Below, piece after piece: positions 22,248 to 41,661 of a stretch of DNA of 64,000 nucleotides. The notes under the pieces were generated by a model. It saw nothing but the letters and a program-made list of their open reading frames with translations, searched no databases and had not been told where the DNA came from. The DNA is from Candidatus Nanopelagicales bacterium. Lineage in GTDB: Bacteria > Actinomycetota > Actinomycetes > S36-B12. Both the position numbers and the translations under genes were made by a program. The stretch's first letter is position 1, and the number at the start of each line of letters is the position of its first letter. The DNA is taken from positions 146,981 through 210,980 of the forward strand of contig JBBATH010000004.1 in the NCBI GenBank assembly GCA_040398845.1, written 5' to 3'.

Positions 22248-22256
22248 GGATGCAGA

Positions 22257-25796: not shown

Positions 25797-25798
25797 GG

Positions 25799-27717: not shown

Positions 27718-27814
27718 CACCCTCCTTCGAAGATGCACTTGCCTTTTGCAGTGACACTTGTCGCCGCGCACGCCTGCGTCATTCCGGGCGACCCTCGCGC
27801 AAGGAGTGCCTCGG

Positions 27815-28087: not shown

Positions 28088-28719
28088 CCTATGTTCTGCG
28101 GGTTCTCCCTGACGCGAGCGTCGATGAGCACGTTGTGGCCGGCGAAGAACTGGTAACAGAACCAGACCGCCAACGGGATTCCGAGGATCAGGCCGCACAC
28201 GGAGAGGCTCACGACGTTTGACAGGACGAGGAGGGTCACAAGAAGACCGGCCGAACGGAGCATCGCCCTAGCTGCCACGGGGGCCGCGGCATCGCGGTCC
28301 TTGATGACCTCGTTGATGATCAGCGCCTCGATCACGATCGCCGCGATGACCGCAAGCAAGCCCAGGACCCCGGTGAGCAGGGACAGCACGATGGCAGCAC
28401 CAACGGCGATCACCGTTCCCCAGAAGTACTGCTCTAGGTTGGCACCCGCTCGCCCGGACAGGGTCCGATACATCCGCATCGCCTTTTAGAGCCACACCAT
28501 AAAGTAGATGCCGAACGTAATGGTGCTGAGGAACGTCATCATGCCGACGTCGACTCGACCCAGCTCAAGGAAAGCACCCCTCGGCGAGTCGGCCCGGACC
28601 GGACCGGACCGAACCGGCAGATTATCCGGAGGACCAGGAACCAGCGTGGGCGCCCCGCAGGCCATGTAGACTTGCAAGGATTGATGCTGAACCTCCGAGC
28701 CACACTTCGGACAAAACAC
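28084..28719 (-). pseudogene. zinc-ribbon + DUF4234-like membrane protein interrupted by an in-frame TAA
   Basis: ORF 28486..28719 (MFCPKCGSEV..C zinc ribbon ... TFGIYFMVWL) and ORF 28084..28479 (three hydrophobic helices) are in the same frame, separated by TAA at 28486-28488. The GIYxxxW motif is split from its expected continuation. Confidence 0.6.
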
Positions 28720-28925
28720 GATGGCCCCCTCAAGAGCTGCCGCACCCTACGACAACGAAGGCTGCTGGAGCAAGACGGGCTAGGTCAGGCGGGCGCCTCC
28801 GACGGCACCGGTCGTCGCTCAGGTGCGCGGTGATGAGTGGCACGCTCGGCGGATGCGCCCCGCGAAGGTTGGAGCCATTGCCTGGGAGCGAGTTCCGACG
28901 CGGGTCAGGTCCATGCTCAGTTCTG

Positions 28926-29876
28926 CTAGGTCGTGCGTCGCCGCCTGCCGTAGGCCTCGATGCCGAGTGCAAAGAGGATCACCAAGCCCTGAACGATCCG
29001 CTGCACCACCGGGTCGATGCCGTTGAGATTGAACCCATTGCCGAGGAAGGCGATGAAGAAGACACCGACAACCGTTCGCCATATCGCACCGTAGCCACCG
29101 GCGATCGATGTTCCGCCGACCACGATCGCCGCGATCACGGTGAAGACCAGACTGAAGTCGTCGCTCGCCTGAGCGGTGAGGGTTCGGATGGCGTTCAGCG
29201 AGCCAGCAAGTCCCGCGGCCATGCCGCCGAGGATGAACGCCAGCGCGATGACACGGTCGACCGGCACGCCCGCCAGGCGGGCAGCCTCCTGATTGCCGCC
29301 CACAGCGAATACATACCGGCCGAAGCGGGTCCGGTGAAGGAGTACCCCGGCGATGCCGATACATACGATGGCGATCCAGGTTGATGACGTGATGCCGAGA
29401 ACCTTGGTCGTGGCAAGGGCACGCATGGTCGAGTCGGGCAGTCGGAGGATGGATCCGTCCGAGACGAGATACGCGATGCCGAAGATCACCAAGGACGTCG
29501 CAAGCGTCACAATGAATGAGTTGATCTGGGCTTTCGAAACGATCAGGCCATTGATCAGACCGATGATGCACCCGACAACGGCCCCGACCAACAGCATGAG
29601 CAGCCCGGATTGAACATGCTCCGCAACGCGAATGGCCACGAGCGGGGCAAGGATGAAGGTTGCCGAAAGGGATATGTCAAAGCCACCGGCGATCAGGGTG
29701 ATGGTGGCGAAGACCGCGACGATGAGCACGATCGCGTTCTGGTCAAGGACATTCGACAGATTGGTGCCGCTGCGGAACGCCGGCGTGGTCACGGCAAGCA
29801 GCAGGAACAGGATGACAGTCGCCCACACGATCCCGTACTCGCCGAGGACATTAACGATACGTCGACTCGGATTCAC
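28926..29876 (-). CDS. ABC transporter permease, CUT2 (RbsC/AraH-like) family
   Basis: 316-aa polytopic protein with the typical ..GGFDLSxxxxxxL.. architecture (IAGGFDISLSATFIL). Has a 4-nt overlap with the ATPase gene. Confidence 0.85.
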   Translation of the reverse strand: MNPSRRIVNVLGEYGIVWATVILFLLLAVTTPAFRSGTNLSNVLDQNAIVLIVAVFATITLIAGGFDISLSATFILAPLVAIRVAEHVQSGLLMLLVGAVVGCIIGLINGLIVSKAQINSFIVTLATSLVIFGIAYLVSDGSILRLPDSTMRALATTKVLGITSSTWIAIVCIGIAGVLLHRTRFGRYVFAVGGNQEAARLAGVPVDRVIALAFILGGMAAGLAGSLNAIRTLTAQASDDFSLVFTVIAAIVVGGTSIAGGYGAIWRTVVGVFFIAFLGNGFNLNGIDPVVQRIVQGLVILFALGIEAYGRRRRTT

Positions 29877-31375
29877 GTGTCTCTCCCTGCAATGGTGAAC
29901 GCGGCGTTCATGATCTGCTCCTCAGTGGCGGTGCTGCCGTCGAATTCCGCGACGACCCTTCCCTCGTGCATAACAATCACGCGATGCGCCAAGCCGAGCA
30001 CCTCCTCGGTCTCCGACGAGACCATGAGGATCCCCATCCCTCGCTCGGCGAGCGAGACGAGGAGGTCGTAGATGGCGCGCTTTGCTGCGACGTCAACGCC
30101 GCGCGTTGGCTCGTCGGCGAGGAGGAGGACCGGATCCTCGACGAGGGCCCGGGCGAAGAGCACCTTCTGCTGGTTTCCGCCGGACAACGACGTGACCGGC
30201 GTTGTGACCTTTTCCGTTCGCACACCAACTGCCTCGACCGAAGTCTCGGCTTGCTCCAGCGCGGCACTCGGCGAGACGAGTCCAAAGGACCCCAAGTTTC
30301 GAAGGTGCGGCATCGTGATGTTCCACTCCACCGACATGTTGAGGAACAGACCCTGCTCCTTGCGTGACTCCGGTATGAGCGCGAGGCCGCTTCGCAGGGC
30401 CTCCGCCGGGTTGCGAGGCGCGAAGGCATTGCCCACCAATGTCATTGACCCGGAGTCTGCCGGCACATCGCCGAACACCGTGTGAAGGACCTCACTGCGG
30501 CCGGAGCCCACCAGCCCGGTGATCACGACGATTTCACCCTCGCAAACAACGAGGTCGACACCCGCGAACGCCGATCCCCTCGTCAGGCCCTGTACTGAGA
30601 GGAGTTCCTTCGCACCTGCGCCGGGAATCCTTCGAGGCGGGAAGTTCGCACTGAACGAACGCCCGGTCATGCCCTCGATGAGCGATTCCTCGGTCTCATC
30701 AGCCACTCGCGAGGTTCGAATGATCTCGCCATCGCGCATCACCGTCACGACGTCGGCGATGTCAAGTACTTCAGTGAGGAAGTGCGACACGAAAATCACG
30801 GTGCGTCCAGCATCGGCAAGCCGGCGAGTGAGCGACTTGAGCGCGGCCGTCTCAACACCAGTGAGTCGTGCGGTCGGTTCATCCATAACGATCACGCCGG
30901 CATCACGCGCCACAGCGCGAAGGATCTCTACTTTCTGGCGATCGCTAATCGGAAGGCCTCCGACGGCCACATCCGCGGGGACGCTGATCCCGGTGTCAGC
31001 GACGAGTGCGGCGAAGCGTCGATCGAGTGCCTTCTTTCGCACGAATGGACCCGAGTGGTCCTCAATGCCGAGGTAGACATTCTCGACAACAGATCGCGCC
31101 GGCACCAAGGAGAGTTCCTGCGCCATCATCGTGACGCCCACCTCGAGCGCCTGGCGGGGCGAGTTGAGTGACACAGCTCGCCCCGCTAGGATGTAATCAC
31201 CGCTGTCGGGCTGGATGACGCCCGCAATGACCTTGCCGAGTGTCGACTTTCCCGCACCGTTTTCTCCCACGAGGGCGTGAACGGTACCGCGCTCGATGGT
31301 CAGGTCCACAGCAAGGAGGGCCTGCGTTCCACCGAAACGCTTGGAGATGCCTGTCAACTCGACAACAGCGGCCAT
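29873..31375 (-). CDS. ABC transporter ATP-binding protein with duplicated ABC domains (CUT2/RbsA-like)
   Basis: Two Walker A / signature sets (GENGAGKSTLGK, ISDRQKVEILRA; LSGGNQQKVLFAR). Start set at ATG 31375 (MAAVVELTGISKRFGG) within ORF 29873..31468. Confidence 0.88.
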   Translation of the reverse strand: MAAVVELTGISKRFGGTQALLAVDLTIERGTVHALVGENGAGKSTLGKVIAGVIQPDSGDYILAGRAVSLNSPRQALEVGVTMMAQELSLVPARSVVENVYLGIEDHSGPFVRKKALDRRFAALVADTGISVPADVAVGGLPISDRQKVEILRAVARDAGVIVMDEPTARLTGVETAALKSLTRRLADAGRTVIFVSHFLTEVLDIADVVTVMRDGEIIRTSRVADETEESLIEGMTGRSFSANFPPRRIPGAGAKELLSVQGLTRGSAFAGVDLVVCEGEIVVITGLVGSGRSEVLHTVFGDVPADSGSMTLVGNAFAPRNPAEALRSGLALIPESRKEQGLFLNMSVEWNITMPHLRNLGSFGLVSPSAALEQAETSVEAVGVRTEKVTTPVTSLSGGNQQKVLFARALVEDPVLLLADEPTRGVDVAAKRAIYDLLVSLAERGMGILMVSSETEEVLGLAHRVIVMHEGRVVAEFDGSTATEEQIMNAAFTIAGRDT

Positions 31376-31382
31376 GCCTTGC

Positions 31383-32459
31383 CTAGCCCGCCCACTGGGC
31401 GGTGTAATCGCCCACGTTTGCGGAGGTGATCTTGCCGCCGTTCGGGAAATCGAGCAGCGGATTGACACCGCCAGTGATGGTTCCGTCGCGCAATGCGGCG
31501 ATCATCGCAAGGATGGCCTTCTCACCCTCGGTGCCCGGTGCGCCGAAGACGTCACCGAACCACGTTCCGCCGGCAACAGCATCAAGTGCTGCCTGCGAGC
31601 CGCCGAACCCGATGAGCTTGATCTTGGAGATCAGCCCGGCGTCCTCCACTGCGAGCTGGGCACCTTGAATCGCCTGATCGGGACCGGTGATGACGTTGAT
31701 CTCCGGGTTCTTCTGCAGCATGTCCTGAGTGCCCTTCATGGCGACATCAGGTCCGAGGTACTGGCTCTCGCCCTCCGCGACAACCTTGATGTTCGGGCTG
31801 CCCTTTGTTGCCTCATCGAAGCCCAGCCGAACAGCGGTGTCGAGGGGGGTTCCCTTGATGCCGAAGAAGTACCCGACATTGCACGGATCGAGATCCGCGC
31901 ACGCCTCGACCGCGAGCTCGCCGAGCAATGTGCCACTCGCCTTCGGGGGAACGAGCACCGAGGCCGACGGCCCGTCGAACTGCGGGTCGGAGGTGTCGAG
32001 CTGGTCACCGATGATCTGGTTGAGGATGACCACCTTGAGGCCGGCGTCGATCGCCTGCTGCAGGTCGGGGATCAATGCGGCCCCGTCGAGGCCGGCGATG
32101 ATGATGCCCTTGTAGTCGCCGGCGGCGATGACGTCTTGAATCTGCTTTGCGGCCTCGCCGGGCTTGAACTGGGCATCGAACTCAGTGATCTCGATCCCCT
32201 CGGGGGCCGCGATCGCCTGCATCGACTTGAGCGACGACTGCAGCCAGGTGTTTGCGGAACTTGCACTGAGGTAGGCCACCTTGCCGCCGATAGCAGCGGG
32301 CGCTGATTCAGCTGGGGCCGAGCTTGCCGCGGGGGCGGCGCTTGCAGGTTGAGCGGAGGACTCGCTGCTGCTGGAAGAACCGCCGCAAGCAGTGAGGAGC
32401 AGTGCAGCTGCCCCCACCGTTGCGATGAGCACAGCGGGCGTCGTCTTGAGTCGTGCCAT
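31383..32459 (-). CDS. ABC transporter substrate-binding lipoprotein, periplasmic-binding-protein type 1 (sugar-binding-like)
   Basis: Lipobox LLLTACGG, a Ser/Ala-rich linker and a PBP1-like body. It is the first gene of the transporter triplet. Confidence 0.8.
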   Translation of the reverse strand: MARLKTTPAVLIATVGAAALLLTACGGSSSSSESSAQPASAAPAASSAPAESAPAAIGGKVAYLSASSANTWLQSSLKSMQAIAAPEGIEITEFDAQFKPGEAAKQIQDVIAAGDYKGIIIAGLDGAALIPDLQQAIDAGLKVVILNQIIGDQLDTSDPQFDGPSASVLVPPKASGTLLGELAVEACADLDPCNVGYFFGIKGTPLDTAVRLGFDEATKGSPNIKVVAEGESQYLGPDVAMKGTQDMLQKNPEINVITGPDQAIQGAQLAVEDAGLISKIKLIGFGGSQAALDAVAGGTWFGDVFGAPGTEGEKAILAMIAALRDGTITGGVNPLLDFPNGGKITSANVGDYTAQWAG

Positions 32460-32541
32460 GGGTATTCCTTCCTGTTGGGCTGCAGAACCAGCCTGTTTCC
32501 ATGCAACGCTAGGTCCGTGACAATCATCTAGGAATGGACTT

Positions 32542-32573
32542 TTTGCCTACTTAGATAGCTATACATAGGCAAA
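32542..32573. promoter_or_regulatory. nested inverted repeat TTTGCCTA-N16-TAGGCAAA (centre ATAGCTAT) between the pucR-like stop and the SBP gene
   Basis: Perfect 8-bp arms at 32542-32549 and 32566-32573 in a locally AT-rich stretch. No U-tract follows on the transcribed (minus) strand, so an operator is favoured over a terminator. Confidence 0.35.
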
Positions 32574-32576
32574 CTG

Positions 32577-34238
32577 CTACCCACTCCTGCTAGCGGTGCG
32601 CCCGGGAGCATCACCGGCCTTGAGTTTCGCCACCCGGCACGCCAACTGAACGGCCAATCGCTCCTCCGGCTCCTCGAGATTCACCGTCAGTAGCGTTCGC
32701 AACCGCTCAACGCGGTTAATGACCGTATTGCGGTGGACGCCGAGCACGGCAGCCGTGAGGGTCGCGGACGACTCGGAATCGAGGTACGTCTCCAATGTCG
32801 CGAGCAACTGGCCGTCGGCATCGTTGTCTGTGACCGGCGCCAGCAGCGACGTGGCGAAGGCCGCGAACGACTCCGATGCATACCAGCCCAAGAGGATGCG
32901 ACGTACGCCAAGGGCATCGATGTGCTGGACCCCCGATCGCCCGCCTGCAGCCTGCGCGACAACGGATGCCTCCTTCGCCTCGCTCAGGCTCGCCTGCAAG
33001 CCGTTGAGACCCTGATAGGACCGCCCGAGTCCGCCATGCAGGTGCAGCCTGGGTGCACGGTCCACCACGAGTTCAACGGCGCGCCCAAGGTTCTCGGTCA
33101 ACAAGGCCAGTTGCTCCGGTGTTGGTTCCTTCAGATGCGACACCCATAGCGTCCATCCGTCAGGTCGCTCAATGAGCGGTCCGCGGAGTTCAGCCTCGAC
33201 GAGTTGCCGGTTGAGATCCTCGGTGAGCACGAGGACGCGCAGCGGGTCGGCCTCGCCGGAGGCTTGGAGGATGATCCCGGTGCACCAGCCGTCGACGTGC
33301 CAGCCGAGGGTGGCGAGTTGGCGCCTGAGAGGTCCCTCCGCCCTCTCGGACGAGTCGAGAATCAAACTCAGGATCCCCAGCCGAAATCGTGCGTCACGCT
33401 CACGCTGGAGCCGGTCTTGGACCATGCGCGAGGACACATACCAACCGGACATGAGCAGAAGATCCGAAACTAGAGATGTCTCAGCAGCCGTCGGCGTGCG
33501 GAGGCGCGCCGTCAGCCAGAAGGAGGCTTGCTCATTCGGGGCCAGGGTCAGGGGCCGAGTCACTATAGTGTCGTCACCCTCAAACACCTCAATGGGGACC
33601 TGGAGCACCTCCCCCCAGTCACTCGGCACCGCAGCGGGGTCTCCGAGGATGACGCTCCCCTCCGGCCCGGTCAGGGCGAGCGGTCCCGGGAAGGAGGTCG
33701 CGATCGACTCGAAGGCCCGGTCGAGGGTCGTTCTGGTGCCGGCCGCATCGAGGTGCTCGAGGAGGGTGAGCAGCAGGTCGCTGCGCGCAACATTGGGTTG
33801 CTTGACGACGCCTCGCAGTCCTTCGGCCAGTCGCAGGACCTCGGCCTCAGGCTCGAGGATCAATGGGAGCCGGAGCTTGTCCGCCAGTTTCAATGCCGAC
33901 ACCGGCACGATCATCCGCTGCGCACACAGGACAACGGCACTGGCGCCGCTCTCGCTCGCGACCCGGATCGCGACGTCAACCTGGTAGTTGTCCGAGACGA
34001 GCGTTCGGCCATCGAAGACAACGAGCGCGCCGGCCGCGATTCGGTCCCCCTTGACACGCGATTCGAGGCCGAGTGCGGTGACGTCAACGACGTGCCCGTC
34101 GAGTCCGGAGTCGCCGGCGAGCAGAACAACAGACTTGCTCCAAGGCGCCGCGCCGAGAAGCTGCCGCACAGTGACGGCCGCAAGATCTGCGTTCCTGCGC
34201 GATGAACTGAGCCTGGAATCCCCAGCTCTCATGCTCAT
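32577..34238 (-). CDS. PucR/CdaR family transcriptional regulator
   Basis: C-terminal PucR-type HTH LETYLDSESSATLTAAVLGVHRNTVINRVERLRTLL and a long N-terminal sensory region. Confidence 0.85.
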   Translation of the reverse strand: MSMRAGDSRLSSSRRNADLAAVTVRQLLGAAPWSKSVVLLAGDSGLDGHVVDVTALGLESRVKGDRIAAGALVVFDGRTLVSDNYQVDVAIRVASESGASAVVLCAQRMIVPVSALKLADKLRLPLILEPEAEVLRLAEGLRGVVKQPNVARSDLLLTLLEHLDAAGTRTTLDRAFESIATSFPGPLALTGPEGSVILGDPAAVPSDWGEVLQVPIEVFEGDDTIVTRPLTLAPNEQASFWLTARLRTPTAAETSLVSDLLLMSGWYVSSRMVQDRLQRERDARFRLGILSLILDSSERAEGPLRRQLATLGWHVDGWCTGIILQASGEADPLRVLVLTEDLNRQLVEAELRGPLIERPDGWTLWVSHLKEPTPEQLALLTENLGRAVELVVDRAPRLHLHGGLGRSYQGLNGLQASLSEAKEASVVAQAAGGRSGVQHIDALGVRRILLGWYASESFAAFATSLLAPVTDNDADGQLLATLETYLDSESSATLTAAVLGVHRNTVINRVERLRTLLTVNLEEPEERLAVQLACRVAKLKAGDAPGRTASRSG

Positions 34239-34242
34239 TCCA

Positions 34243-35253
34243 TCATGATGTCACTGCCGGAAGTAGTTCTGCGAGGCGCCGCCTGAGGGTGCCCGAGTTC
34301 ACCCACGCAGCGTCCTCCTCACCGAGTGCATCGACGAGCATGGCGCCTAGCCCGGCGAGATCACCGGGTCGCTGGACATCGTCGAGCATCGGGATAGCCG
34401 TGAGGTCGATGAGCGCACCACCGAGGATCGGATCGACGATCGGCATGAGGTCGGCCATGAAGTCCGGCCCGAGCCCGACCCGATCGGCGCCAAGGATTCT
34501 CATCGCATGCTGCACGTGTGCGATGAGATCAGCAGATGTCGCCGAATCCGCAAGGAACGGGGCGAAGGCATTGATTGCAACGAAACCGCCATGCTCGCCA
34601 ATCGCGCGGATCTGGCGATCCGTGAGGTTGCGGGGGTGATCCTGAAGAGCCCGGCAGGAGGAATGGCTGGCGATGAGCGGCGCCGTGGTGATCGAGTCCA
34701 CGTGCCAGAACCCGTTCTCTGAGAGGTGACTGACATCCAGAATGATGCCAAGGCGAGACATTTCCTGGACAGCGTCGATGCCCAGACCCGTCAGCCGGCC
34801 TCCCGTATCGCGCTCCCCGACGCCATCGGCCAGCATTGTCCGGCGATTCCAGGTGAGGGACACCATACGTACGCCCGCCTGAAACATCGTCCGAACGAGG
34901 GCAATATTGCTCCCAAACGACTCGCCGCCCTCAAGGGCGAGGACGAGCGCGATGCGCCCGCAGTCGATGGCTCGTTCGATGTCAGCACCCGTCAGGCAAA
35001 TGGCGACGTCGTCAGGGTGTTGCCTGGCGATCTGCCATGCCTCGTCAAGGAGGAGGAGGGTCCGGCGGAGTGCGCCTTCACCGACGTACTGCTCCTCAAC
35101 GAAAACCGGAAGAACCTGAAGAACGACACCACCGTCGCGTAGTTGCGGAAGCCAGAAATCCCCGAAGGGGTCCGATTGTCCCCTCTCGCGCCGGTGCAGG
35201 CACGGGATGAGGAGGTCGTTATGGCAGTCCGCCATCGCCAGTTGTCCGCTCAT
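34243..35253 (-). CDS. membrane (renal-type) dipeptidase, peptidase family M19
   Basis: DCHNDLL start motif, ..VSLTWNRRT.., ..LDVSHLSE.. and ..ASHSSCRAL.. are characteristic M19 metal-ligand contexts. Confidence 0.85.
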   Translation of the reverse strand: MSGQLAMADCHNDLLIPCLHRRERGQSDPFGDFWLPQLRDGGVVLQVLPVFVEEQYVGEGALRRTLLLLDEAWQIARQHPDDVAICLTGADIERAIDCGRIALVLALEGGESFGSNIALVRTMFQAGVRMVSLTWNRRTMLADGVGERDTGGRLTGLGIDAVQEMSRLGIILDVSHLSENGFWHVDSITTAPLIASHSSCRALQDHPRNLTDRQIRAIGEHGGFVAINAFAPFLADSATSADLIAHVQHAMRILGADRVGLGPDFMADLMPIVDPILGGALIDLTAIPMLDDVQRPGDLAGLGAMLVDALGEEDAAWVNSGTLRRRLAELLPAVTS

Positions 35254-35651
35254 GTCAACTCCTCTTCAGCGCGTGCCAATTGCAGCGCCCGGGTCAGTTC
35301 ATCACTCGGGGCAACGAGACGAGCCTCGCAAATCTGGCCCGCAGCAACCGTGATGAAGGACGCGCCCTCCACGTCGAGCACGACCGGTGGCTGCTCCGCC
35401 GACACTGCACTCATCCGCCAGCGAATGGCAGCCTGATTACCATCGGCCACGACCTGCAGCACGTCACGTCGATAGTTGGGGAAGAGCGCCACCAATTGAG
35501 CCATGGCGCGGCGATCATCCTCCGCGCTCGAGACTTCGCACACCCCGTTGACCGTGACGTGGATGTCCGGCGCGAGCAACGCCGTCGTGGCATCCCAGTC
35601 ATGTGAGTTCTCCGCGCGGTTGTATGCGAGGTACGCCTCGGCGGCATTCAT
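35250..35651 (-). CDS. SnoaL-like / NTF2 family protein
   Basis: MNAAEAYLAYNRAENSHDWDATTALLAPDIHVTVNG... is typical of the SnoaL-like fold. Start set at ATG 35651, 2 nt after the upstream gene's stop. The 3' end overlaps the dipeptidase start. Confidence 0.65.
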   Translation of the reverse strand: MNAAEAYLAYNRAENSHDWDATTALLAPDIHVTVNGVCEVSSAEDDRRAMAQLVALFPNYRRDVLQVVADGNQAAIRWRMSAVSAEQPPVVLDVEGASFITVAAGQICEARLVAPSDELTRALQLARAEEELT

Positions 35652-35653
35652 CA

Positions 35654-37210
35654 CTACCCCTTCAGCGGCCCGGCCGCCTTGACCTGCACTCGGCATCCTT
35701 GCCCCGGAAGATAGGACATCGGTACCTCCGCAACCGACGTGATGCGCACCCCGTTCGGATCGGCACCGGCACGCACTGCCGCATCGACCGCCAGTTGCTT
35801 TGCCTCGTCGAGGCAGGCATCGCGCCCCAATGCTTCATACCGATACACGCGATCGACGGCGCCGGACGCCTCTGCGATTGCCGCCCCGAAGGCGTTAGCA
35901 ACCGCGTAGTGTGCGGGGCGGATGACCTCGGCGACCCCGTTCACCCGATCTGGGACCAGGTGCGAGCCTCCTCCAACGGCGATGAGCGGCATCGACGCGC
36001 GACTTGCCTTCATTCGATCGCACAGCACCGTGATCTGCTCATCGACCCAGGCCAGAGCGCCGGAGACCGTGGCGTCGCTGATACCGCCAGCCAAGGACGC
36101 ATCCCCGAATCCGGTGAGCCGGCCGGAGCGCACGGCGATGTCGGACAGCGTGAGCGTGCGTCCACCGCTCACGAGTGCCTCCGTCACTACCAGATAGCCG
36201 ACCGAGTCGGGCCCTACGAGCACGGACGATCCGGATTCGGTGACGAGCGTGCCCCCACCGAGTCCGATTGAGATGAGATCGGGCATCCGGAAATTCGTAC
36301 GTACTCCCCCGACCTCGACCGCGGCCGCTGACTCACGTGGGAACCCGTCGACAAGGATTCCAACATCCGCAGACGTGCCGCCAATGTCGATGACGAGTGC
36401 GTTCGAAAGCCCTGCGAGTGCACAGGCCCCACGCATGGAGTTCGTCGGTCCGGAGCCAACAGTGAGGATCGGCAGCCTGACAGCCTCTTCGGCTGTCATG
36501 AGCGTCCCGTCGTTCTGGGTGAGGTAGGACTCGACGTCCAGTCCATGTCTGGTGAGCGCAGTCTGGAGGCCATCGACCACCCGGCGCGCGACGCCGAATA
36601 ACGCAGCGTTGAGAATCGTTGCGTTCTCCCGCTCAAGCAGCCCGAGTGAGCCGACCTGATGGGACATCGAGACGGCAACCTGCCCACCGGTCACCTCGTC
36701 GATGATCGCGGCGGCCCGGATCTCGTGGTCTGTGGTGGCCGGGGCGAACGCCGATGAAACGGCGATCGCACGGACGACACCTATGCAGTCGCGAGCGAAC
36801 GCGCGGACACCGTCTTCATCGAGGGGACTGATCTCCTCCCCGTCGTATTCGAAGCCGCCACGAAGGATGGCGGCCCTGCCGATGACCGTGTCGTGGAGGT
36901 CTGCCGGCCAAGCCATACCGGGACGAATCGCGAGGGACGCCGGCGCCGCAAGGCGCAGGATGCCGATCGGGTCGAGATCTCGGCGCCGAATGATGGCGTT
37001 TGCGGGATGGGTCGTGCCGAGCATCGCCTGCGTGATGTGGGCGCGATCGACGTCAGCGATGACCTGATCGAGGGCGATGCGAATGCCGTCGCTCGGATCT
37101 GGCGTTGTCGCGGTCTTGGTGCTCGACAGGACGTTGCCGTCATCATCGACGACCACCGCGTCGGTATTCGTTCCCCCAACGTCGATGCCGATCCGAAGTC
37201 GCGTGCTCAT
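35654..37210 (-). CDS. hydantoinase/oxoprolinase family protein (HyuA-like, ASKHA fold)
   Basis: RIGIDVGGTNTDAVVVDDDGNVL.., DIGGTSADVG and VGGGS motifs. No HyuB-type partner lies nearby. Confidence 0.85.
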   Translation of the reverse strand: MSTRLRIGIDVGGTNTDAVVVDDDGNVLSSTKTATTPDPSDGIRIALDQVIADVDRAHITQAMLGTTHPANAIIRRRDLDPIGILRLAAPASLAIRPGMAWPADLHDTVIGRAAILRGGFEYDGEEISPLDEDGVRAFARDCIGVVRAIAVSSAFAPATTDHEIRAAAIIDEVTGGQVAVSMSHQVGSLGLLERENATILNAALFGVARRVVDGLQTALTRHGLDVESYLTQNDGTLMTAEEAVRLPILTVGSGPTNSMRGACALAGLSNALVIDIGGTSADVGILVDGFPRESAAAVEVGGVRTNFRMPDLISIGLGGGTLVTESGSSVLVGPDSVGYLVVTEALVSGGRTLTLSDIAVRSGRLTGFGDASLAGGISDATVSGALAWVDEQITVLCDRMKASRASMPLIAVGGGSHLVPDRVNGVAEVIRPAHYAVANAFGAAIAEASGAVDRVYRYEALGRDACLDEAKQLAVDAAVRAGADPNGVRITSVAEVPMSYLPGQGCRVQVKAAGPLKG

Positions 37211-38292
37211 GCCGTCGCTCCTTCCATGGACACGAAGTCCACGTCATAGCCGAATGCCTTCGGTCCGACAAGCTCCAACATGCCCGGCTGATGCCACTCA
37301 GGTGCGCACGGCAGGCCGATGACATTGATGCGCTGGCCGTACGCGAGGGTCTCGGTCGTGATCGGATCAGAGGTCTCATAGTCGAGGAAGCAGATGAGAT
37401 CGGGGGTCGTGATGACCGGCTTGCCGTCCTCGAAGGCGATGAGGAACTCGTTTTGGATCTCCACGCGCATGATCCGCTCCGAATCAGAGAGGTCCTCCAG
37501 CACGACCGTTCCGCGAGCGAAACCGGCTGTTGTGCGACGGTCGACGTCGATGATCTTTCCTGAGAAGTACTTGCGGCCACCGGAGAAGCGCAGGAACTCA
37601 TCGAATGCGCCCTCCTCACCCCGCTTGACGGCATTGAGTCGCTTGCCCAACTCGACGCAGTAGCTCATCGAGCCTTGGATCCCGTGTTCGGCGACCTGTC
37701 TGACCGTCATCGGATAGCAGGAGATCCCATTGGCCATGCCCAATTGCATGACCGACGCACGGGCCAGTTTCTCGGCCACCTGATTGCTGATGGTCTGAAG
37801 TACCACCACATTGCCCTTTTCATCCGCCACGCTCATCGGAGCGGCAGGAATCCCTGCGAGGGTGAAGACAGTCATCTCGATCTGCGGGAACGCCCGGCGC
37901 ATCGAATCGGCATCAATGACCGGCAGGCCCATCTCGACAGCGGTTGCGAGCGGTATAAGGGTGTTCATGCCACCGACCTCGATCGGCATGATCGCAACCG
38001 GCTCCTTGCCCAAGTGAGCGGCAAGCGCCTTCACACAGGCAACGAACTCGGTGCCGGCCGGGGGCTTCTCGATGATCACGGTGGGCGCTCCGATGACCGC
38101 GGTCGTGAGCACGAGGCCATCGGGATCAAGTTCGCTCGGATCAACGATCTTCACTGCCCCGAAGCGCCCCATCGCCTGCCTGACCATAAGTCGGGCGATA
38201 TACGGATCCCCGCCGCCGCCAGTCCCGAGGAGGGTCGCCCCGATGACCATGTCATCAAGGTCGTCCAACGTGAGTTCGCGCATAGTTTCCAC
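37207..38292 (-). CDS. DUF917 domain-containing protein
   Basis: LTLDDLDDMVIGATLLGTGGGGDPY.. N-terminal signature of DUF917. Has a 4-nt overlap with the hydantoinase-like gene. Confidence 0.8.
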   Translation of the reverse strand: METMRELTLDDLDDMVIGATLLGTGGGGDPYIARLMVRQAMGRFGAVKIVDPSELDPDGLVLTTAVIGAPTVIIEKPPAGTEFVACVKALAAHLGKEPVAIMPIEVGGMNTLIPLATAVEMGLPVIDADSMRRAFPQIEMTVFTLAGIPAAPMSVADEKGNVVVLQTISNQVAEKLARASVMQLGMANGISCYPMTVRQVAEHGIQGSMSYCVELGKRLNAVKRGEEGAFDEFLRFSGGRKYFSGKIIDVDRRTTAGFARGTVVLEDLSDSERIMRVEIQNEFLIAFEDGKPVITTPDLICFLDYETSDPITTETLAYGQRINVIGLPCAPEWHQPGMLELVGPKAFGYDVDFVSMEGATA

Positions 38293-38388
38293 CTGTGTCA
38301 GTTCGAGGGACGTGCTGAGTACGAAGTAGTTGAACTGTAGAAGAGATTGCCCCCGGTAACCCTGTGCAGTTCGCTCACTGGTGATAAA

Positions 38389-39684
38389 TCACGTGGGCAG
38401 ATTGCCCCGTGCATGAGTCGGAGTTCGTAGCCCTTTGCCCCACTGGAATCGCTCGATGGAGAAGGGCGCAAGTTCTGGGGGCTGCGACTTCCCCTCGACC
38501 AGGTCAGCGACGAGTTGACCGGTACGAGGTGCCAGCGTTACGCCGAGCATGGCGTGGCCGGTAGCGAGGATGACCCCCGGTGCTTGCCGCAGCCGGCCGA
38601 TGACCGGCAGGCCGTCGGGGGTCATCGGTCGCAGCCCGGCCCACGGCTCGCGGGCGCCGTCGATGCCCGCAGCGAAGTACGGCCGGGAGGAGGTGATGAT
38701 GCCGGCTGCGCGCCGGAGATCCACCCGATCCGGATCGCCACCGAACTCCATCGTCCCCGCCAGTCGCATGCCCTCGTTCAACGGCGTGACCGCCACCTTT
38801 GCCTCCGTCAGGTAGACGGCTCGACGCGGCGGCACGGGCGGGGCCGCGAGGTCGTACCCGTATCCCTTGCCGAACCTCAGCGGTAGGCGCTGCCCGAGGG
38901 ACGCCACGATTCTCGAGGTACCGACGCCGGCGGCAACGACAACCTGTCGCGCCGACATGGACCCATGGCCCCACGACAGGGCGATCCGGTCCTTCGCGAT
39001 GGCCAGGCCCCGGACCGACTGCCCCTCGAGCACCGGCACGCCCATAGCGCCGATCGCGCTCCGCAGCCCATCTACGTAGCTGCCTGGATTGAGGTGCATC
39101 TGGTCCGGGCAGAGGATTCCGGCGACCACGGTTTCAGCAAGACCGGGCTCCACATCGCGGACCCCGGTCGCATCGAGGAGCTCCGGGGTTGATAGCCCCG
39201 CAGCCGAGGCTGCGTCCTGGTATTCCTTGACGTGGGCCTCGAACTCACCAAGCGACGTGAATGCGAGGAGGACGCCGTCCCGGTGCAACTCGAAGTGGAC
39301 TCCCCGCCCGGCGTAGGCATCGAACAGGTCCAGCGTGCCCTCCGCCAACGCGCCGACGGCAGCGTGCCCCTGCTGAAATCGCCGTGGCGTCGACGCCCGC
39401 AGCATGCCGATCATGAAGGCGATGTGCCCGGGGTCGAGGTCAGGCGCAACGCGAAGTGGCGACGTCGGATCGAACATCCAACGGGCGGCCTTGCCTACGA
39501 CACCGGGGGCAGGAACCGGCGCGGCCATAATGGGCACGACCCATCCAGCGTTGCGGCGCGCGGCACCCGAACCGACGGTAAGGGCTTCAATGACTGCAAC
39601 GTCGATGCCGCGTGTCGCGAGCTCGAATGCGACGCTCAGCCCAACCGGCCCGGTGCCAATGACAACAACCTCGTGGTCAGCCAC
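38389..39684 (-). CDS. FAD-dependent oxidoreductase (DadA / glycine-D-amino-acid oxidase-like)
   Basis: HEVVVIGTGPVGLSVAFELATRGIDVAVIEA dinucleotide fold and a DAO-family body. The ORF extends to ATG 39735. GTG 39684 is preferred because it reduces the overlap with the upstream gene from 59 to 8 nt. Confidence 0.8.
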   Translation of the reverse strand: MADHEVVVIGTGPVGLSVAFELATRGIDVAVIEALTVGSGAARRNAGWVVPIMAAPVPAPGVVGKAARWMFDPTSPLRVAPDLDPGHIAFMIGMLRASTPRRFQQGHAAVGALAEGTLDLFDAYAGRGVHFELHRDGVLLAFTSLGEFEAHVKEYQDAASAAGLSTPELLDATGVRDVEPGLAETVVAGILCPDQMHLNPGSYVDGLRSAIGAMGVPVLEGQSVRGLAIAKDRIALSWGHGSMSARQVVVAAGVGTSRIVASLGQRLPLRFGKGYGYDLAAPPVPPRRAVYLTEAKVAVTPLNEGMRLAGTMEFGGDPDRVDLRRAAGIITSSRPYFAAGIDGAREPWAGLRPMTPDGLPVIGRLRQAPGVILATGHAMLGVTLAPRTGQLVADLVEGKSQPPELAPFSIERFQWGKGLRTPTHARGNLPT

Positions 39685-40657
39685 GTGAGCCCCCGCCCAT
39701 GAGGAGGTCTGCGACTGCGGCGTCCTGGATACCAAGGCCGACGCTCGCGTAGACGGTCAAATCCAGTGCCGTGGCAAGTCGGTCTACGTGGCCGGCGAGA
39801 ACATCTCCGATTGCATGCACATCGTCGCGCGCAAGACTCCCCGAGGAAATTCCGGCGGCGACGGGGCCGCACTGCATGCACGCAGTGGCGACATCGTCGA
39901 CGTAGACCGAGCCTGCTCGCTCGATGACATCTGCCCCGAATTCGTGCCGGTCCGGGGCGAACGATCCGACGCTGACGAGCGTGGTGCCTGAGTCGAGCCA
40001 GTCTGCGCGAATGACCGGCTCGAAGCTCGTCGTGCAGAGGATGACCGTGTCGGCCCCCTCGACCCCTTGACGGAGGTCATCGGTCACCTGCAATCGATCA
40101 TCGACTGGGGGGCCCTCGACACCGTCACGGGCGAGCAGGGATCCGTGCCGGACCACCATGGTCACGCGCACGTCGGGATATCGCGCGAGCATGAGGTCGG
40201 CGTGCGCCAACCCTTGTCGACCGGCGCCGACGATGACCGCGTGCCTCGGCAGAGCCGTGCCCGCGTCGCCGAGCGCCAGTCCCTCCATCACTGCGATGCT
40301 CGCTGCCGGGGTTCGCCTCGTCGTGATCGCCTCGCCATCCATCGTCGCGACGACCTCGCCGGTGACCTTGTCCATGACGAGGACGAGGGCGTGCACGCTC
40401 GGCAACCCCCGCCCGGGATTGCCCGGGTTTACGCTGCCGATCTTCACGACCGGCCATCCGTCCCGGCTCGCTCGCGCGAGGTAGCTGAACGCCGTGTTCT
40501 CGCCGTAGGCCAGCAGCGCCCGAGTCGCGAGCTGCGCCTCACCGAGGGCAAAGGCCCGAAGCACGTCATGCTGAGAGGCCACCAAATCATCCCATGTCAG
40601 GGCTGACGCGACTGCGGCCGCTGAGAAATGCCGGGCCACCGATGGACTCAGGGCCAC
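39677..40657 (-). CDS. ornithine cyclodeaminase / mu-crystallin family protein
   Basis: ..VKIGSVNPGNPGRGLPSVHALVLVMDKVTGEVVATMDGEAITTRRTPAAS.. and the Rossmann stretch AVIVGAGRQG. Start set at GTG 40657 (GAGGGAGG 6 nt upstream) within ORF 39677..40729. Confidence 0.8.
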   Translation of the reverse strand: MALSPSVARHFSAAAVASALTWDDLVASQHDVLRAFALGEAQLATRALLAYGENTAFSYLARASRDGWPVVKIGSVNPGNPGRGLPSVHALVLVMDKVTGEVVATMDGEAITTRRTPAASIAVMEGLALGDAGTALPRHAVIVGAGRQGLAHADLMLARYPDVRVTMVVRHGSLLARDGVEGPPVDDRLQVTDDLRQGVEGADTVILCTTSFEPVIRADWLDSGTTLVSVGSFAPDRHEFGADVIERAGSVYVDDVATACMQCGPVAAGISSGSLARDDVHAIGDVLAGHVDRLATALDLTVYASVGLGIQDAAVADLLMGGGSRG

Positions 40658-40728
40658 GTCCGCCTCCCTCTTGAAATCCCACTCGACTAGCCGACACCAC
40701 GGTCTCCGCTGGTGTCCGTCGGACCACA

Positions 40729-40781
40729 CGATAGTCGCGGCCTTTCACCCCACTCCTGTGACATACCCACAGCGATAGTCG
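40729..40781. promoter_or_regulatory. direct repeat of CGATAGTCG (x2) in the divergent promoter region of the catabolic cluster
   Basis: CGATAGTCG occurs at 40729-40737 and 40773-40781. A related inverted copy CGACTAG lies at 40684-40690. All three sit between the OCD-family start (40657) and the racemase start (40876). Confidence 0.3.
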
Positions 40782-40875
40782 AATCGGTGTGCACGTTGCC
40801 ACTCTTGACGATCGGCCATGCGTGCGATCCTCAGTCTGCCATCTCGAGACCGTCGACCTTGAAAGGAGCCCGATC

Positions 40876-41661
40876 ATGGGCCGTCGCATCCTGTGGATCA
40901 ACCCGGTCGGAACCTCGGCCTACGACGAGCCGATCGGCACCGCGCTTCGCGGCGAGGCGCTACCAGACACGCGCATTGACGTGTGCTCCCTGCCAGGCTT
41001 TCCGATCAACCACCTCGAGTACAACGCCTATGAGATGGTCATGGCCGGTGCCACCATCGGAGCGGTTCGCTGGGGCGAGCAGCAGGGCTACGACGCCGCC
41101 GTCATCGGTTGCTTCTACGATCCGGCACTCCGCGCTGCCAGAGAGGTCTCCGGCTCGATGGCCGTCACGGCGCCGGCCGAGGCGTGCATGCACATCGCCA
41201 CGACGGTCGGCGAGCGGGTCAGCATTCTCGTCGGTCGATCGAAGTGGATCCCCGAGATGCACGAGAACGCAGTGAAGTACGGGTTCGCCGACAAGGTCGC
41301 CTCCTTCCGTGTGCTTCGCATGACCGTGAATGAGTTTCAGCAGGACCCCGCCTGCACTGAGGAGCGCATCCTCGAGGAGGCGCGGCTCGCCGTCGAGCAG
41401 GACGGCGCGGATGTCATCGTCCTCGGCTGCACGATCGAGTTCGGCTTCTACCGGACGATCCAGGACGAGCTCGGTGTCCCGGTCATCGACGCGCTCGTCG
41501 CTCCGCTTCGCTACGCGGAGCTCCTCGCCGACGTCAACACTCGGCATGGCTGGGGAACGAGTCGGGTTCGCGGATACGAGCGCCCCGACGAGGCTGAGCT
41601 TGACGCCTTCGTTCCGGTGTTCGTGCCGAGCGTCCATCGCGATCCTCGTGACACAGCCTGA
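40876..41661 (+). CDS. Asp/Glu/hydantoin racemase family protein
   Basis: MGRRILWINPVGTSAYDEPI.., ..AAVIGCFYDPAL.. and ..DVIVLGCTIEFGF.. provide the two catalytic-Cys contexts. ATG 40876 is preceded by GAAAGGAG. ORF 40789..41661 was trimmed accordingly. Confidence 0.85.
   Translation: MGRRILWINPVGTSAYDEPIGTALRGEALPDTRIDVCSLPGFPINHLEYNAYEMVMAGATIGAVRWGEQQGYDAAVIGCFYDPALRAAREVSGSMAVTAPAEACMHIATTVGERVSILVGRSKWIPEMHENAVKYGFADKVASFRVLRMTVNEFQQDPACTEERILEEARLAVEQDGADVIVLGCTIEFGFYRTIQDELGVPVIDALVAPLRYAELLADVNTRHGWGTSRVRGYERPDEAELDAFVPVFVPSVHRDPRDTA

Follow-up and report, generated by a model that had tools for sequence, protein, structure and literature searches.

A PucR-linked gene cluster conserved in several phyla couples a DUF917 protein to a short HyuA-like ATPase and most likely serves the catabolism of a small cyclic amide

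In the analysed stretch of 64,000 nucleotides (the window), positions 28926–41661 carry a real gene cluster that is conserved in several phyla. Most likely, the cluster serves to import a small cyclic amide, either a cyclic dipeptide or a hydantoin, to open its ring with ATP, to split the product and to recycle a D-amino acid. The ring would be opened by a DUF917 protein and a short HyuA-like ATPase (HyuA'), which appear to behave as one enzyme. This ATP-using two-protein enzyme, kin to the ATP-dependent lactamases, is without prior characterisation. The initial annotation had proposed ring opening, hydrolysis, oxidation and imine reduction. This is still the best reading, and the interpretation as a whole is partly supported.

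Relatives are encoded in 351 GTDB species genomes. Among the 54 loci that span 19 kb or more, the genes for DUF917, HyuA' and the M19 dipeptidase were each found in all 54, the PucR regulator in 49, the binding protein of the importer in 47 and the racemase in 35; many of the counted loci come from related genomes, and therefore fewer independent events underlie them than the counts suggest. The order and strand of the conserved core genes are shared among these 54 loci. Dozens of species, spread over several phyla, share this gene order, and such an arrangement is far beyond chance. MAGs labelled as Chloroflexota and Gammaproteobacteria carry the same core, and a Paenarthrobacter plasmid carries nine of the same genes. 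In the version of Longimicrobiales, DUF917, HyuA' and an M19 close by are retained, but the transporters are different. Genes that recur nearby encode second M19 copies, M20, MR_MLE epimerase-like proteins, and M24 and S9 peptidases. No characterised orthologue or orthologous cluster with a known substrate was found, which agrees with the earlier view of the system as undescribed.

All eleven genes are present, and Pfam and NCBIfam profile HMMs backed the family assigned to each of them in the initial annotation. A base-by-base check of the junctions reproduced the overlaps and short gaps that had been listed: overlaps of 4 nt at 29873/29876, 35250/35253 and 37207/37210, an overlap of 8 nt at 39677/39684, and gaps of 2–7 nt at 31375/31383, 34238/34243 and 35651/35654. 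The array also contains two unlisted larger gaps, of 96 nt between the genes of an FAD-dependent dehydrogenase (DAO) and DUF917 and of 117 nt between the genes of PucR and the binding protein. Therefore, the array probably consists of three co-directional units, from which the racemase gene diverges, and the single ten-gene transcript suggested earlier is unlikely. The 117-nt gap in front of the binding-protein gene contains a perfect inverted repeat, TTTGCCTA-N16-TAGGCAAA (32542–32573), which is a candidate operator or transcript boundary. It occurs once in the window, and one such match was obtained in 49 of 100 shuffles, so it is not rare by chance; no clear conservation of the repeat was seen in relatives.

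HyuA' (35654–37210, minus strand, 518 aa; Hydant_A_N 2.5e-32) is an ASKHA ATPase that matched the PDB entry 7hk5, an N-methylhydantoinase (1.2e-28), and CapA (1.3e-23), and retains the ATP-binding motifs GIDVGGTNTD, VIDIGGTSAD and GLGGGT. Like the ATPase subunit of the HyuA/HyuB lactamases (OplAB, N-methylhydantoinase, CapAB), it is a HyuA homologue with Hydant_A_N and Hydantoinase_A. In contrast to that subunit, it is about 170 aa shorter, its Hydantoinase_A match is limited to profile positions 1–176 of 291, and the Pfam search found no Hydant_A_C domain in it. The adjoining partner gene and the catabolic context with permease, racemase and downstream amidase are again shared with these lactamases, but the partner here is DUF917 and not HyuB. 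As noticed earlier, HyuB is absent from the window. DUF917 (37207–38283, minus strand, 358 aa; PF06032 and PF20906) had 2o3i as its sole fold match in Foldseek and showed no homology to HyuB (hhalign probability 0.2%).

HyuA' was present in 73 of 78 loci, the DUF917 orthologues are 63–95% identical, and the 4-nt stop/start overlap of the two genes is kept in 62 of 70 loci. Pairs of DUF917 and HyuA' also occur in Haloferax (archaea), Bacillota and Rhizobium, and four eukaryotes encode full-length HyuA'-DUF917 fusions, which parallel the HyuA-HyuB fusion of eukaryotic 5-oxoprolinase. The overlaps, the recurrent pairing and the fusions argue that the two proteins act as one enzyme. In C. difficile, DUF917 and HyuA' are co-regulated with a permease (PMC12915319). 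In the HyuAB family, the A subunit phosphorylates and the B subunit hydrolyses (PMC6061476). We propose that HyuA' is the lactim-phosphorylating subunit and DUF917 its hydrolytic partner.

The earlier statement that DUF917 has no assigned function is outdated at the family level: the family is now named S-Me-THD_N/C in Pfam, and Pfam and NCBIfam link it to thiohydantoin desulfurases. These matches and the PucR-type regulator could suggest a cluster for ergothioneine/thiohydantoin or allantoin/purine catabolism, but we disfavour this explanation as highly improbable. The thiohydantoin and S-methyl-thiohydantoin desulfurases (NF058529, NF058532), which attack a 5-substituted imidazolidinone ring at the carbon bearing the leaving group, belong to the same two-domain DUF917 fold family. 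However, their identity to the cluster DUF917 is about 27%, and the latter scored 132 and 105 bits against the NCBIfam desulfurase models, far under the equivalog cut-offs of 450 and 440. Genes of the desulfurase type have no HyuA' partner and are neighbours of a urocanate-hydratase homologue, whereas the cluster DUF917 clade is always coupled to the ATPase. Unlike the Agrobacterium pAt cluster, where a stand-alone DUF917 is 27% identical, the cluster has neither ergothionase nor thiourocanate hydratase. Allantoinase and allantoicase are absent from it, as initially noted, and so are the ureidoglycolate enzymes.

The proposed pathway would begin with uptake of the ring compound by the CUT2-type ABC importer and its divergent sugar-fold binding lipoprotein. 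The cofactor-independent two-Cys racemase would then epimerise the acidic ring C-alpha, and therefore all stereoisomers could feed one hydrolase. HyuA' would phosphorylate the lactim oxygen of the ring amide, and the translationally coupled DUF917 would add water, so that the ring opens and ADP and Pi are released. DUF917, though unrelated to HyuB, would thus take the part that HyuB has in 5-oxoprolinase, N-methylhydantoinase and caprolactamase. The linear dipeptide would be cleaved by the M19 enzyme. In this genome, the DadA-like FAD dehydrogenase and the OCD-family reductase would turn the released D-amino or imino acid into the L-form.

The M19 protein (34243–35253, minus strand, 336 aa; PF01244 4e-76) is of the renal, binuclear-metal dipeptidase type. 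Its translation carries the N-terminal HND, and alignment with Sco3058 (3id7) revealed LEGGES, DVSHLS, IASHSS, HPRN and GLGPDF, which we take, from the structure of Sco3058, to be the metal and carboxylate ligands. Compared with Sco3058 and other bacterial M19 dipeptidases, no metal ligand is lost and the Arg that binds the carboxylate is kept too, and the enzyme is predicted to be catalytically intact. It differs from Sco3058 in being only about 35% identical over the core and in lacking an insertion of about 40 aa (Sco3058 residues 254–293). The preference of Sco3058 for L-Xaa-D-Xaa dipeptides would be consistent with a D-amino acid as product.

It is improbable that M19 itself is the cyclic amidase and that HyuA'/DUF917 performs another ATP-dependent step, such as carboxylation or decarboxylation (cf. 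acetone carboxylase) or the exchange of a group on the ring (cf. S-methyl-thiohydantoin desulfurase). M19 does have the amidohydrolase fold of hydantoinases and hydrolyses beta-lactams in mammals, subunits of acetone and acetophenone carboxylases are among the HyuA relatives, and DUF917 has no relationship to HyuB. In addition, the reaction of characterised DUF917 enzymes is the substitution of a group at ring C2, and not ring opening. But the retained Arg is typical of enzymes that act on open dipeptides. Moreover, minimal clusters of Bacillota contain only a regulator, a permease, DUF917 and HyuA', and therefore the pair must catalyse the first productive step after import of the compound.

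The importer is of the sugar type, as had been supposed, and is the most consistently conserved transporter of the loci. Its AraH/RbsC-like permease (28926–29876, minus strand, 316 aa; PF02653 1.8e-37) scored below every NCBIfam sugar equivalog cut-off, and in 56 of 78 loci it follows the ATPase. The RbsA/AraG-like ATPase (29873–31375, minus strand, 500 aa, ATG at 31375) is a fused protein with two ABC_tran domains; it reached 431 bits against the AraG model (cut-off 689) and is present in 58 of 78 loci. The binding lipoprotein (31383–32459, minus strand; Peripla_BP_4, PF13407 1.9e-34) has a sugar-type fold and a lipobox, LLTAC. Its top PDB match, ribose-binding protein, reached only 1.9e-10, and it is found in 58 of 78 loci at 50–67% identity. 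The PucR-family regulator (32577–34238, minus strand, 553 aa; HTH_30 3.1e-18, GGDEF_2 2.5e-11), whose PucR N-domain gave 29 bits, under the cut-off of 33.5, follows immediately after M19 in 59 of 78 loci.

The conserved sugar-type importer would suit another lactam or a cyclic amidine: ornithine or lysine lactam, a pyroglutamyl compound, a creatinine-like 2-amino-imidazolone or a sugar-amino-acid lactam of the agropinic acid type. Among lactams, 5-oxoproline and caprolactam have known ATP-dependent HyuAB enzymes (PMC6061476). One member of the OCD family is ornithine cyclodeaminase; combined with PutA, it would convert ornithine into glutamate. The Ti-plasmid genes agaF and agaG are HyuA/B-like and have been proposed to open agropinic acid. 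We nevertheless consider such substrates unlikely: the universal M19 and the ring-type two-Cys racemase would have no obvious job, achiral creatinine-type rings require no racemase, and neither a sugar kinase, nor an isomerase, nor opine-oxidase subunits are conserved in the loci.

The racemase (40876–41661, plus strand, divergent from the array, 261 aa; PF01177 1.7e-29) is of the hydantoin/allantoin-racemase type. Its nearest solved structure, 3qvj (1.3e-26), was deposited as a 'putative hydantoin racemase', and it keeps both Cys positions that differ in the variant entry 3qvk. Another relative is OpaE, an epimerase of a ring-embedded aminoacyl residue. High-identity orthologues occur in about 30 loci, in varying positions.

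The cluster may be a catabolic island under PucR control, directed at a small cyclic amide that is chiral and neutral; as the most likely substrate we tentatively name a 2,5-diketopiperazine (cyclic dipeptide), at worse than even odds. The universal and apparently intact M19, the peptidase neighbours, the recruitment of DAO and OCD genes and the two-Cys racemase all count for it. PF01177 racemases, DUF917 and peptidases are over-represented in clusters of the CDO-like, diketopiperazine-oxidising kind (PMC11055893). Enzymes that hydrolyse diketopiperazines have not been identified, and actinobacterial strains cleave such rings stereoselectively (PMC3852281). On the other hand, the importer is not peptide-type, the nearest solved relatives of the racemase were deposited as racemases of hydantoin or allantoin, both five-membered rings, thiohydantoins are the substrates of characterised DUF917 enzymes, and canonical HyuA/HyuB genes adjoin the cluster in several lineages. 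Furthermore, from proline diketopiperazines the lactim chemistry would give Xaa-Pro, a dipeptide that no M19 enzyme is known to cleave.

With the same architecture and mechanism, the substrate could, with only slightly lower probability, be a 5-substituted hydantoin or a related five-membered cyclic ureide or amide. The racemase would then be a hydantoin racemase, HyuA'/DUF917 an ATP-dependent hydantoinase giving an N-carbamoyl amino acid, and the amidohydrolase-fold M19 an unconventional carbamoylase, with DAO and OCD inverting the D-amino acid. This agrees with the racemase structures and the frequent HyuA/HyuB neighbours mentioned above, with the thiohydantoin desulfurases as the only named members of the DUF917 family, and with N-methylhydantoinase as the closest relative of HyuA'. 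Related DUF917/HyuA' pairs adjoin NCS1 permeases (the hydantoin/allantoin/cytosine carrier family), and the plasmid copy, whose host degrades iprodione, is accompanied by further hydantoin genes. Iprodione is a fungicide with a hydantoin ring, and growth on it raises the expression of p1_00033 and p1_00026 in strain TA1.8 (PMC12927932). By gene-number spacing only, these two genes are probable orthologues of HyuA' and the racemase; the response, the sole hint from expression, speaks for hydantoins no less than for diketopiperazines.

Classical hyu operons (the 'hydantoinase process') share with the cluster a permease, a ring racemase, a ring-opening hydrolase and a second hydrolase that yields the amino acid, as well as the logic of dynamic kinetic resolution of stereoisomers. 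They differ in having an NCS1 permease in place of the sugar-type ABC importer, and a dihydropyrimidinase-type hydantoinase and a carbamoylase, where the cluster has M19 in the second position. No carbamoylase, nitrilase-type or M20 AmaB-type, belongs to the core, as the initial annotation had reported, and no M19 enzyme is known to act as one. The dipeptidase ligand set of M19 and the second M19, M24, S9 and MR_MLE neighbours suit peptides better than hydantoins. The cluster is commonest in freshwater and sponge habitats, where natural 5-substituted hydantoins are scarcer than diketopiperazines.

The neighbourhood conservation that had been expected held for the core (DUF917, HyuA', M19, PucR, the ABC importer and the racemase) but not for the DAO and OCD of the window. 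The DAO (38389–39684, minus strand, 431 aa; PF01266 5.7e-57) is a DadA-like amine/D-amino-acid dehydrogenase with 224 bits against the DadA subfamily model (cut-off 383). Since its type was found in only 4 of 78 loci, the DAO and OCD of the window are lineage-variable accessories and not a fixed part of the cluster. The OCD/mu-crystallin family protein (39677–40657, minus strand, 326 aa; PF02423 1.1e-31) is NAD(P)-dependent and a candidate imine reductase or cyclodeaminase; it fell under all NCBIfam cut-offs, with near-equal scores for archaeal AlaDH and Pyr2C/Pip2C reductase. The adjoining FAD DAO and NAD(P)H-dependent OCD genes resemble D-to-L inversion modules (DauA/DauB for arginine, D-proline dehydrogenase with Pyr2C reductase), although both window proteins are under all equivalog cut-offs.

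In 30 of the 54 loci, a gene of the DAO family is found no more than 10 kb away. Non-orthologous DAO and OCD genes were recruited in at least five lineages; elsewhere, a non-orthologous DAO, a Pyr2C reductase and PutA stand in place of the window genes. The sponge-type OCD of Acidimicrobiia exceeds the Pyr2C/Pip2C reductase equivalog cut-off (360 versus 322) and has PutA next to it; PutA adjoins in 12 loci and on the Paenarthrobacter plasmid. Wherever Pyr2C reductase and PutA are in the cluster, proline would be the released acid. These recurrent modules, together with the peptide-related neighbours, strengthen the logic of ring opening, hydrolysis, oxidation and imine reduction.

The SnoaL/NTF2-like protein (35250–35651, minus strand, 133 aa; PF12680 1.5e-16) had no informative relative in the PDB. 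Its gene is missing from the Acidimicrobiia versions and present in the Actinomycetes-type, Chloroflexota and 'Gammaproteobacteria' ones. The likely true start of DUF917 is 38283 (ATG) and that of OCD is 40657 (GTG after GAGGGAGG); public gene calls concur with both, giving 358 aa for DUF917 and 326 aa for OCD. The racemase likely starts at 40876 (ATG after AAGGAG), and its length equals that of the gene call in a 95%-identical relative (L090).

The region at 28926-41661 holds eleven genes, ten of them co-directional on the minus strand and one divergent on the plus strand. The initial annotation had named the protein families of all eleven, and Pfam and NCBIfam upheld each name. On the minus strand lie a BPD_transp_2 permease, a fused double-ABC ATPase resembling RbsA/AraG, a Peripla_BP_4 solute-binding lipoprotein (SBP), a PucR-type regulator (HTH_30 and GGDEF_2), an M19 enzyme (Peptidase_M19), a SnoaL-like protein (SnoaL_2), a short HyuA-like ATPase of 518 aa (HyuA'; Hydant_A_N and the first part of Hydantoinase_A), a DUF917 protein (37207-38283; now Pfam S-Me-THD_N/C), a flavoenzyme of the DAO family closest to DadA, and an OCD/mu-crystallin protein (OCD). 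The plus-strand gene encodes an Asp/Glu/hydantoin racemase. We corrected the starts of the DUF917 (38283), OCD (40657) and racemase (40876) genes. Good ribosome-binding sites precede the corrected OCD and racemase starts, the DUF917 and OCD lengths now equal the public gene calls, and the racemase length equals the call in a 95%-identical relative. The minus-strand genes had been described as one head-to-tail array. Its listed junctions stood: three are overlaps of 4 nt (29873/29876, 35250/35253 and 37207/37210), one is an overlap of 8 nt (39677/39684) and the rest are gaps of 2-7 nt. Its continuity did not stand: a 96-nt gap between the DAO and DUF917 genes and a 117-nt gap between the PucR and SBP genes had been missed. 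Because of these gaps, the array probably consists of three co-directional units (ocd-dao; duf917-hyuA'-snoaL-M19-pucR; sbp-atpase-permease) in addition to the divergent racemase gene. Scans for consensus promoters and terminators gave no signal above background. A perfect inverted repeat with 8-nt arms, TTTGCCTA-N16-TAGGCAAA, lies at 32542-32573 between the PucR stop and the SBP start, occurs once in the window, and is a candidate operator or transcript boundary. We rejected it as a common PucR operator since it is not kept 5' of the SBP gene in relatives, where a GGGC-N5-GCCC-like element recurs in its place; the three intergenic regions that we compared have no palindrome in common.

To follow the cluster across genomes, we surveyed GTDB with one genome for each species, which gave 351 encoding stretches, and examined 78 loci, in which gene presence was scored by tblastn with the window proteins. 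The DUF917 orthologues are very close (the best 120 matches are 63-95% identical), and one order on a single strand recurs: DUF917, HyuA', (SnoaL), M19, PucR, SBP, ATPase, permease. HyuA' was found in 73 of the 78 loci, M19 in 69, PucR in 59, SBP and ATPase in 58 each, permease in 56, racemase in 46 and SnoaL in 21; an OCD of the window type was present in 22, mostly at low identity. In the subset of 54 loci of at least 19 kb, PucR was present in 49 and SBP in 47, and counting by family gave a racemase in 35, a DAO in 30, an OCD in 19 and PutA in 12. Conservation of the neighbourhood, a check suggested by the initial annotation, thus held for the core (HyuA' and M19 each in 54/54 long loci) and failed for the window-type DAO (4/78). 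The carriers are freshwater Actinomycetota, one lineage of which is very widespread, sponge-associated Acidimicrobiia, Prauserella and Thermocrispum. MAGs labelled Chloroflexota (Limnocylindrales) and Gammaproteobacteria carry the same core; in a Longimicrobiales version, DUF917, HyuA' and a nearby M19 are kept but the transporters differ. A 92-kb metagenomic contig matches the window, and relatives 95% identical to it keep the whole arrangement from racemase, OCD and DAO through DUF917 onwards. The closest public copy of the cluster (CALPZT020000077.1, 95% identity) belongs to a MAG labelled 'Bifidobacterium breve'; this contig is probably mis-binned, because the other close relatives of the cluster are freshwater Actinomycetota.

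By its apparent working, the cluster is an ATP-dependent lactamase in a hyu-like operon. However, two features that define the HyuAB family, HyuB and a full-length A subunit, are absent. To our knowledge, ATP-dependent lactamases are known solely as HyuA/HyuB pairs. HyuA' (PF05378, 2.5e-32; PF01968, 1.3e-28) resembles the A part of N-methylhydantoinase and caprolactamase and keeps the ASKHA nucleotide-binding motifs, DxGGT at residues 10-14 and 275-279 and GGGT at 318-321. Compared with canonical HyuA of about 690 aa, it is about 170 aa shorter and lacks Hydant_A_C; PF19278 gave no match, and Hydantoinase_A aligned over positions 1-176 of 291 only. In the canonical HyuA of the homologous locus L024 all three domains are present. 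The initial annotation had noticed a hydantoinase A homologue without its HyuB. Indeed, no PF02538 (HyuB) gene was detected among the cluster genes, the flanks and the other large window ORFs scanned, and the adjacent partner is DUF917. The AlphaFold model of DUF917 (pLDDT 84) gave 2o3i as the sole Foldseek match in the PDB. Judging by this model, DUF917 is not a diverged HyuB, and the profile-profile comparison with HyuB by hhalign agrees (0.2% probability). The N-terminal motif G-T/S-GGGG-DPY of DUF917 (residues 20-29) resembles the conserved C-terminal HyuB motif GGGGGFGDP (L024:16494-18170, residues about 520-530), although the families have no detectable homology; from the sequences, it may be a convergent phosphate or leaving-group loop. 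Canonical HyuA and HyuB genes adjoin the DUF917/HyuA' cluster in unrelated lineages (loci L024, L025, L027, L026, L087/L088 and L080), and these proteins are 68% identical between Thermocrispum and the Paenarthrobacter plasmid. The adjacency of DUF917 and hydantoinase genes is already apparent from annotations. NCBIfam release 20 has no equivalog for either subunit, and in the literature searched no HyuA'-coupled DUF917 had been studied functionally.

DUF917 and HyuA' operate as a single unit, as several lines of evidence show. Of 70 loci, 62 have a 4-nt overlap between the DUF917 stop and the HyuA' start and six more a 1-nt overlap, in line with the operonic coupling that had been proposed for the window from the overlap at 37207/37210. 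Distant DUF917 proteins (37-46% identity) again adjoin a short HyuA': together with a peptide-type ABC system on Haloferax pHV3, with NCS1 permeases on plasmids of Planococcus, Parageobacillus and Lactiplantibacillus (in L. plantarum with PucR too), and with a racemase and a nitroreductase-family gene in Rhizobium. Genes for a permease, a DUF917 protein and a hydantoinase shift expression together in C. difficile (PMC12915319). Finally, among the best 150 family representatives six are fusions of an N-terminal HyuA' to a C-terminal DUF917, 736-992 aa long (P0216, P0211, P0256, P0267, P0234 and P0197). Both halves of P0216 align over their full length with the window proteins, at 40% and 35% identity. 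Four of the five fusion sources looked up are eukaryotic (Anaeramoeba flamelloides, Ancoracysta twista, Hyaloraphidium curvatum and Gefionella okellyi), and the fifth is a JGI metagenome protein. The fusion parallels the HyuA-HyuB fusion of eukaryotic 5-oxoprolinase. The AlphaFold model of P0216, built from a 6-sequence alignment, has a disordered linker and a quality (pLDDT 65, pTM 0.58) below the level at which an interface can be judged. In the archaeal locus of Haloferax volcanii pHV3 (L081, 3160-13826), a five-component peptide-type ABC transporter is followed by DUF917, HyuA', DUF917 and DUF917, so that one ATPase stands among three DUF917 paralogues.

The DUF917 protein matches S-Me-THD_N (PF06032, 1.1e-55) and S-Me-THD_C (PF20906, 1.4e-61), and the names point to thiohydantoin desulfurases. 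It differs from these enzymes in falling far below the cut-offs of the desulfurase equivalogs NF058532 and NF058529 (131.9 bits vs 450 and 104.7 bits vs 440), and it has no ergothioneine-catabolic neighbours: neither an ergothionase, a thiourocanate hydratase nor the hydantoinase of that pathway was found among the window ORFs scanned. On account of these scores, and of the lack of ergothionase and thiourocanate hydratase, we rejected ergothioneine catabolism. On Agrobacterium pAt, where such neighbours are present, a member of a stand-alone DUF917 clade (about 27% identity) adjoins a urocanate-hydratase homologue and hydrolases without HyuA'. This fits the view that the stand-alone clade comprises the thiohydantoin desulfurases behind the family's Pfam and NCBIfam names. 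Allantoin catabolism was rejected for the lack of allantoinase, allantoicase and ureidoglycolate enzymes among the window ORFs scanned, and sugar catabolism for the lack of any sugar kinase or isomerase conserved in the loci.

The M19 enzyme (PF01244, 256.7 bits vs a gathering cut-off of 26) shows an N-terminal HND in translation, has no NCBIfam equivalog and aligns with Sco3058 at LEGGES, DVSHLS, IASHSS, HPRN and GPDF, keeping its bridging Glu, two His, the HPRN arginine and the GPDF aspartate. Since the metal ligands and the HPRN arginine are kept, the sequence makes an open product with a free carboxylate its most likely substrate. The racemase (PF01177, 103.6 bits; no NCBIfam model matched) has cysteines in VIGCFYDP and VLGCTIEF that align with the two cysteines of 3qvj replaced by Ser in the variant entry 3qvk. 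It matches 3qvj at 1.3e-26 and is related to a comparable degree, at 8e-20, to OpaE, which epimerises an aminoacyl residue inside a peptide-derived ring. The importer had been called sugar-type, and its composition is that of a CUT2 set; however, it scores far below the cut-offs of all sugar equivalogs (ribose, arabinose, xylose, allose and others), the best for SBP being 36.6 bits vs 335. The best PDB match of SBP reached only 1.9e-10, and PDB searches pointed to no informative ligand or function for either SBP or the SnoaL-like protein. In the regulator, HTH_30 and GGDEF_2 score above their cut-offs, and the N-terminal PucR domain, at 29 bits, stays below its own of 33.5. In contrast to the classical hyu hydantoin-utilisation operon, the cluster lacks an N-carbamoyl-amino-acid amidohydrolase: no nitrilase-type or M20 form was found in it or among the conserved neighbours, as the initial annotation had noted for the cluster.

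Lineages differ in their accessory genes, and non-orthologous members of the same families have been recruited beside the core. They include a 378-aa DAO-family enzyme in 31 loci, an OCD above the cut-off of the NCBIfam Pyr2C/Pip2C reductase equivalog (360 vs 322), PutA, a second racemase, a second M19, M20, an MR_MLE epimerase-like gene, M24 and S9 peptidases and PLP enzymes. This recurrent recruitment speaks for the release of a D-amino or imino acid that is then salvaged via oxidation and re-reduction and that, in several lineages, is proline.

Enzymes of the HyuAB family work in two steps, phosphorylation of the lactim tautomer by the A subunit and its hydrolysis by the B subunit (PMC6061476). 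By analogy, after import by the CUT2-type ABC system and epimerisation of the ring by the racemase, HyuA' would phosphorylate the ring amide oxygen and DUF917 would add water, so that the ring opens. M19 would then cleave the linear product, and DAO with OCD would invert D to L. Desulfurases related to DUF917 expel sulfur as the leaving group from an analogous sp2 carbon of the ring, and this makes it plausible that DUF917 displaces phosphate.

We tentatively read the substrate as a diketopiperazine, which fits the universal dipeptidase and the peptide-related neighbours. Cyclic dipeptides rank with the most frequent small natural products and with the most frequent signalling or food-derived compounds. 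DUF917 and racemases are enriched in clusters of diketopiperazine-oxidase homologues (PMC11055893). The enzymes that hydrolyse diketopiperazines are essentially unidentified (PMC3852281), and we found no identified one in the literature searched. The initial annotation had also considered a hydantoin, and we hold a 5-substituted hydantoin to be nearly as likely a substrate as a diketopiperazine. It would agree with the nearest relatives of the racemase, with precedents in the family, with the NCS1 neighbours of paralogous DUF917/HyuA' pairs and with a hint from iprodione. Nine genes of the cluster (DUF917, HyuA', NTF2, membrane dipeptidase, HTH, three ABC genes and racemase) recur on plasmid pYJN5-3 of Paenarthrobacter sp. 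YJN-5, an iprodione degrader, with 61%, 71% and 54% identity to the window for DUF917, HyuA' and M19; at the other end of the record are an FAD oxidoreductase, an OCD gene, an aminotransferase and PutA. At 18882-37403 of this locus (L080), a second, paralogous pair of DUF917 and a Hydant_A_N-only protein adjoins a polysaccharide deacetylase, which we take to be the iprodione gene ddaH1, probably. The same stretch encodes a PucR-like HTH protein, a racemase, an MFS transporter, canonical HyuA/HyuB, a GAF protein, an amidohydrolase and PutA. For the related strain TA1.8, a study from 2026 describes induction by iprodione of the 'hydantoin hydrolases' p1_00033, 42, 44, 45 and 52 and the 'hydantoin racemases' p1_00026 and 48 (PMC12927932). 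We infer from these gene numbers, whose spacing fits the pYJN5-3 order, that p1_00033 may be HyuA' and p1_00026 the racemase of the cluster. If this assignment is right, the cluster responds to a hydantoin-ring compound.

Conserved catabolic clusters without a known substrate are common; this one is a well-defined, widespread candidate for a missing enzyme activity. It is doubtful, taken as a whole, that the pair is the missing bacterial diketopiperazine hydrolase, an ATP-driven lactamase of two components with a hydrolytic subunit whose fold is unrelated to HyuB, spread from archaea to eukaryotes and set within a complete pathway from import to D/L salvage that feeds freshwater and sponge-symbiont Actinomycetota. 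If DUF917 really replaces HyuB, the pair would be a second, non-homologous solution to ATP-driven amide ring opening. In that case about 4,000 sequence clusters, a family present in all three domains of life, would gain a function, a nutrient niche would be explained for the very abundant Actinomycetota of freshwater and sponges, and stereoselective biocatalysts would be at hand for dipeptide and D-amino acid synthesis. This enzyme architecture would be new even with a hydantoin as substrate.

Several other genes of the window were recorded. A 1055-aa ORF on the minus strand (2732-5899) has no Pfam match at E <= 1e-6; the protein encoded after it, of 664 aa, has an IPT/TIG domain. A prolyl oligopeptidase (S9) at 14543-16738 and a POT-family di/tripeptide transporter at 45851-47332 are probably unrelated to the cluster, because neither is kept beside it elsewhere. 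The window also encodes a HipA-family toxin kinase (55771-57108), two AAA_14/DUF4143 ATPases (10858-12153 and 53077-54516) and a Fic-domain protein (26602-27717), whose gene lies directly downstream of the cluster.
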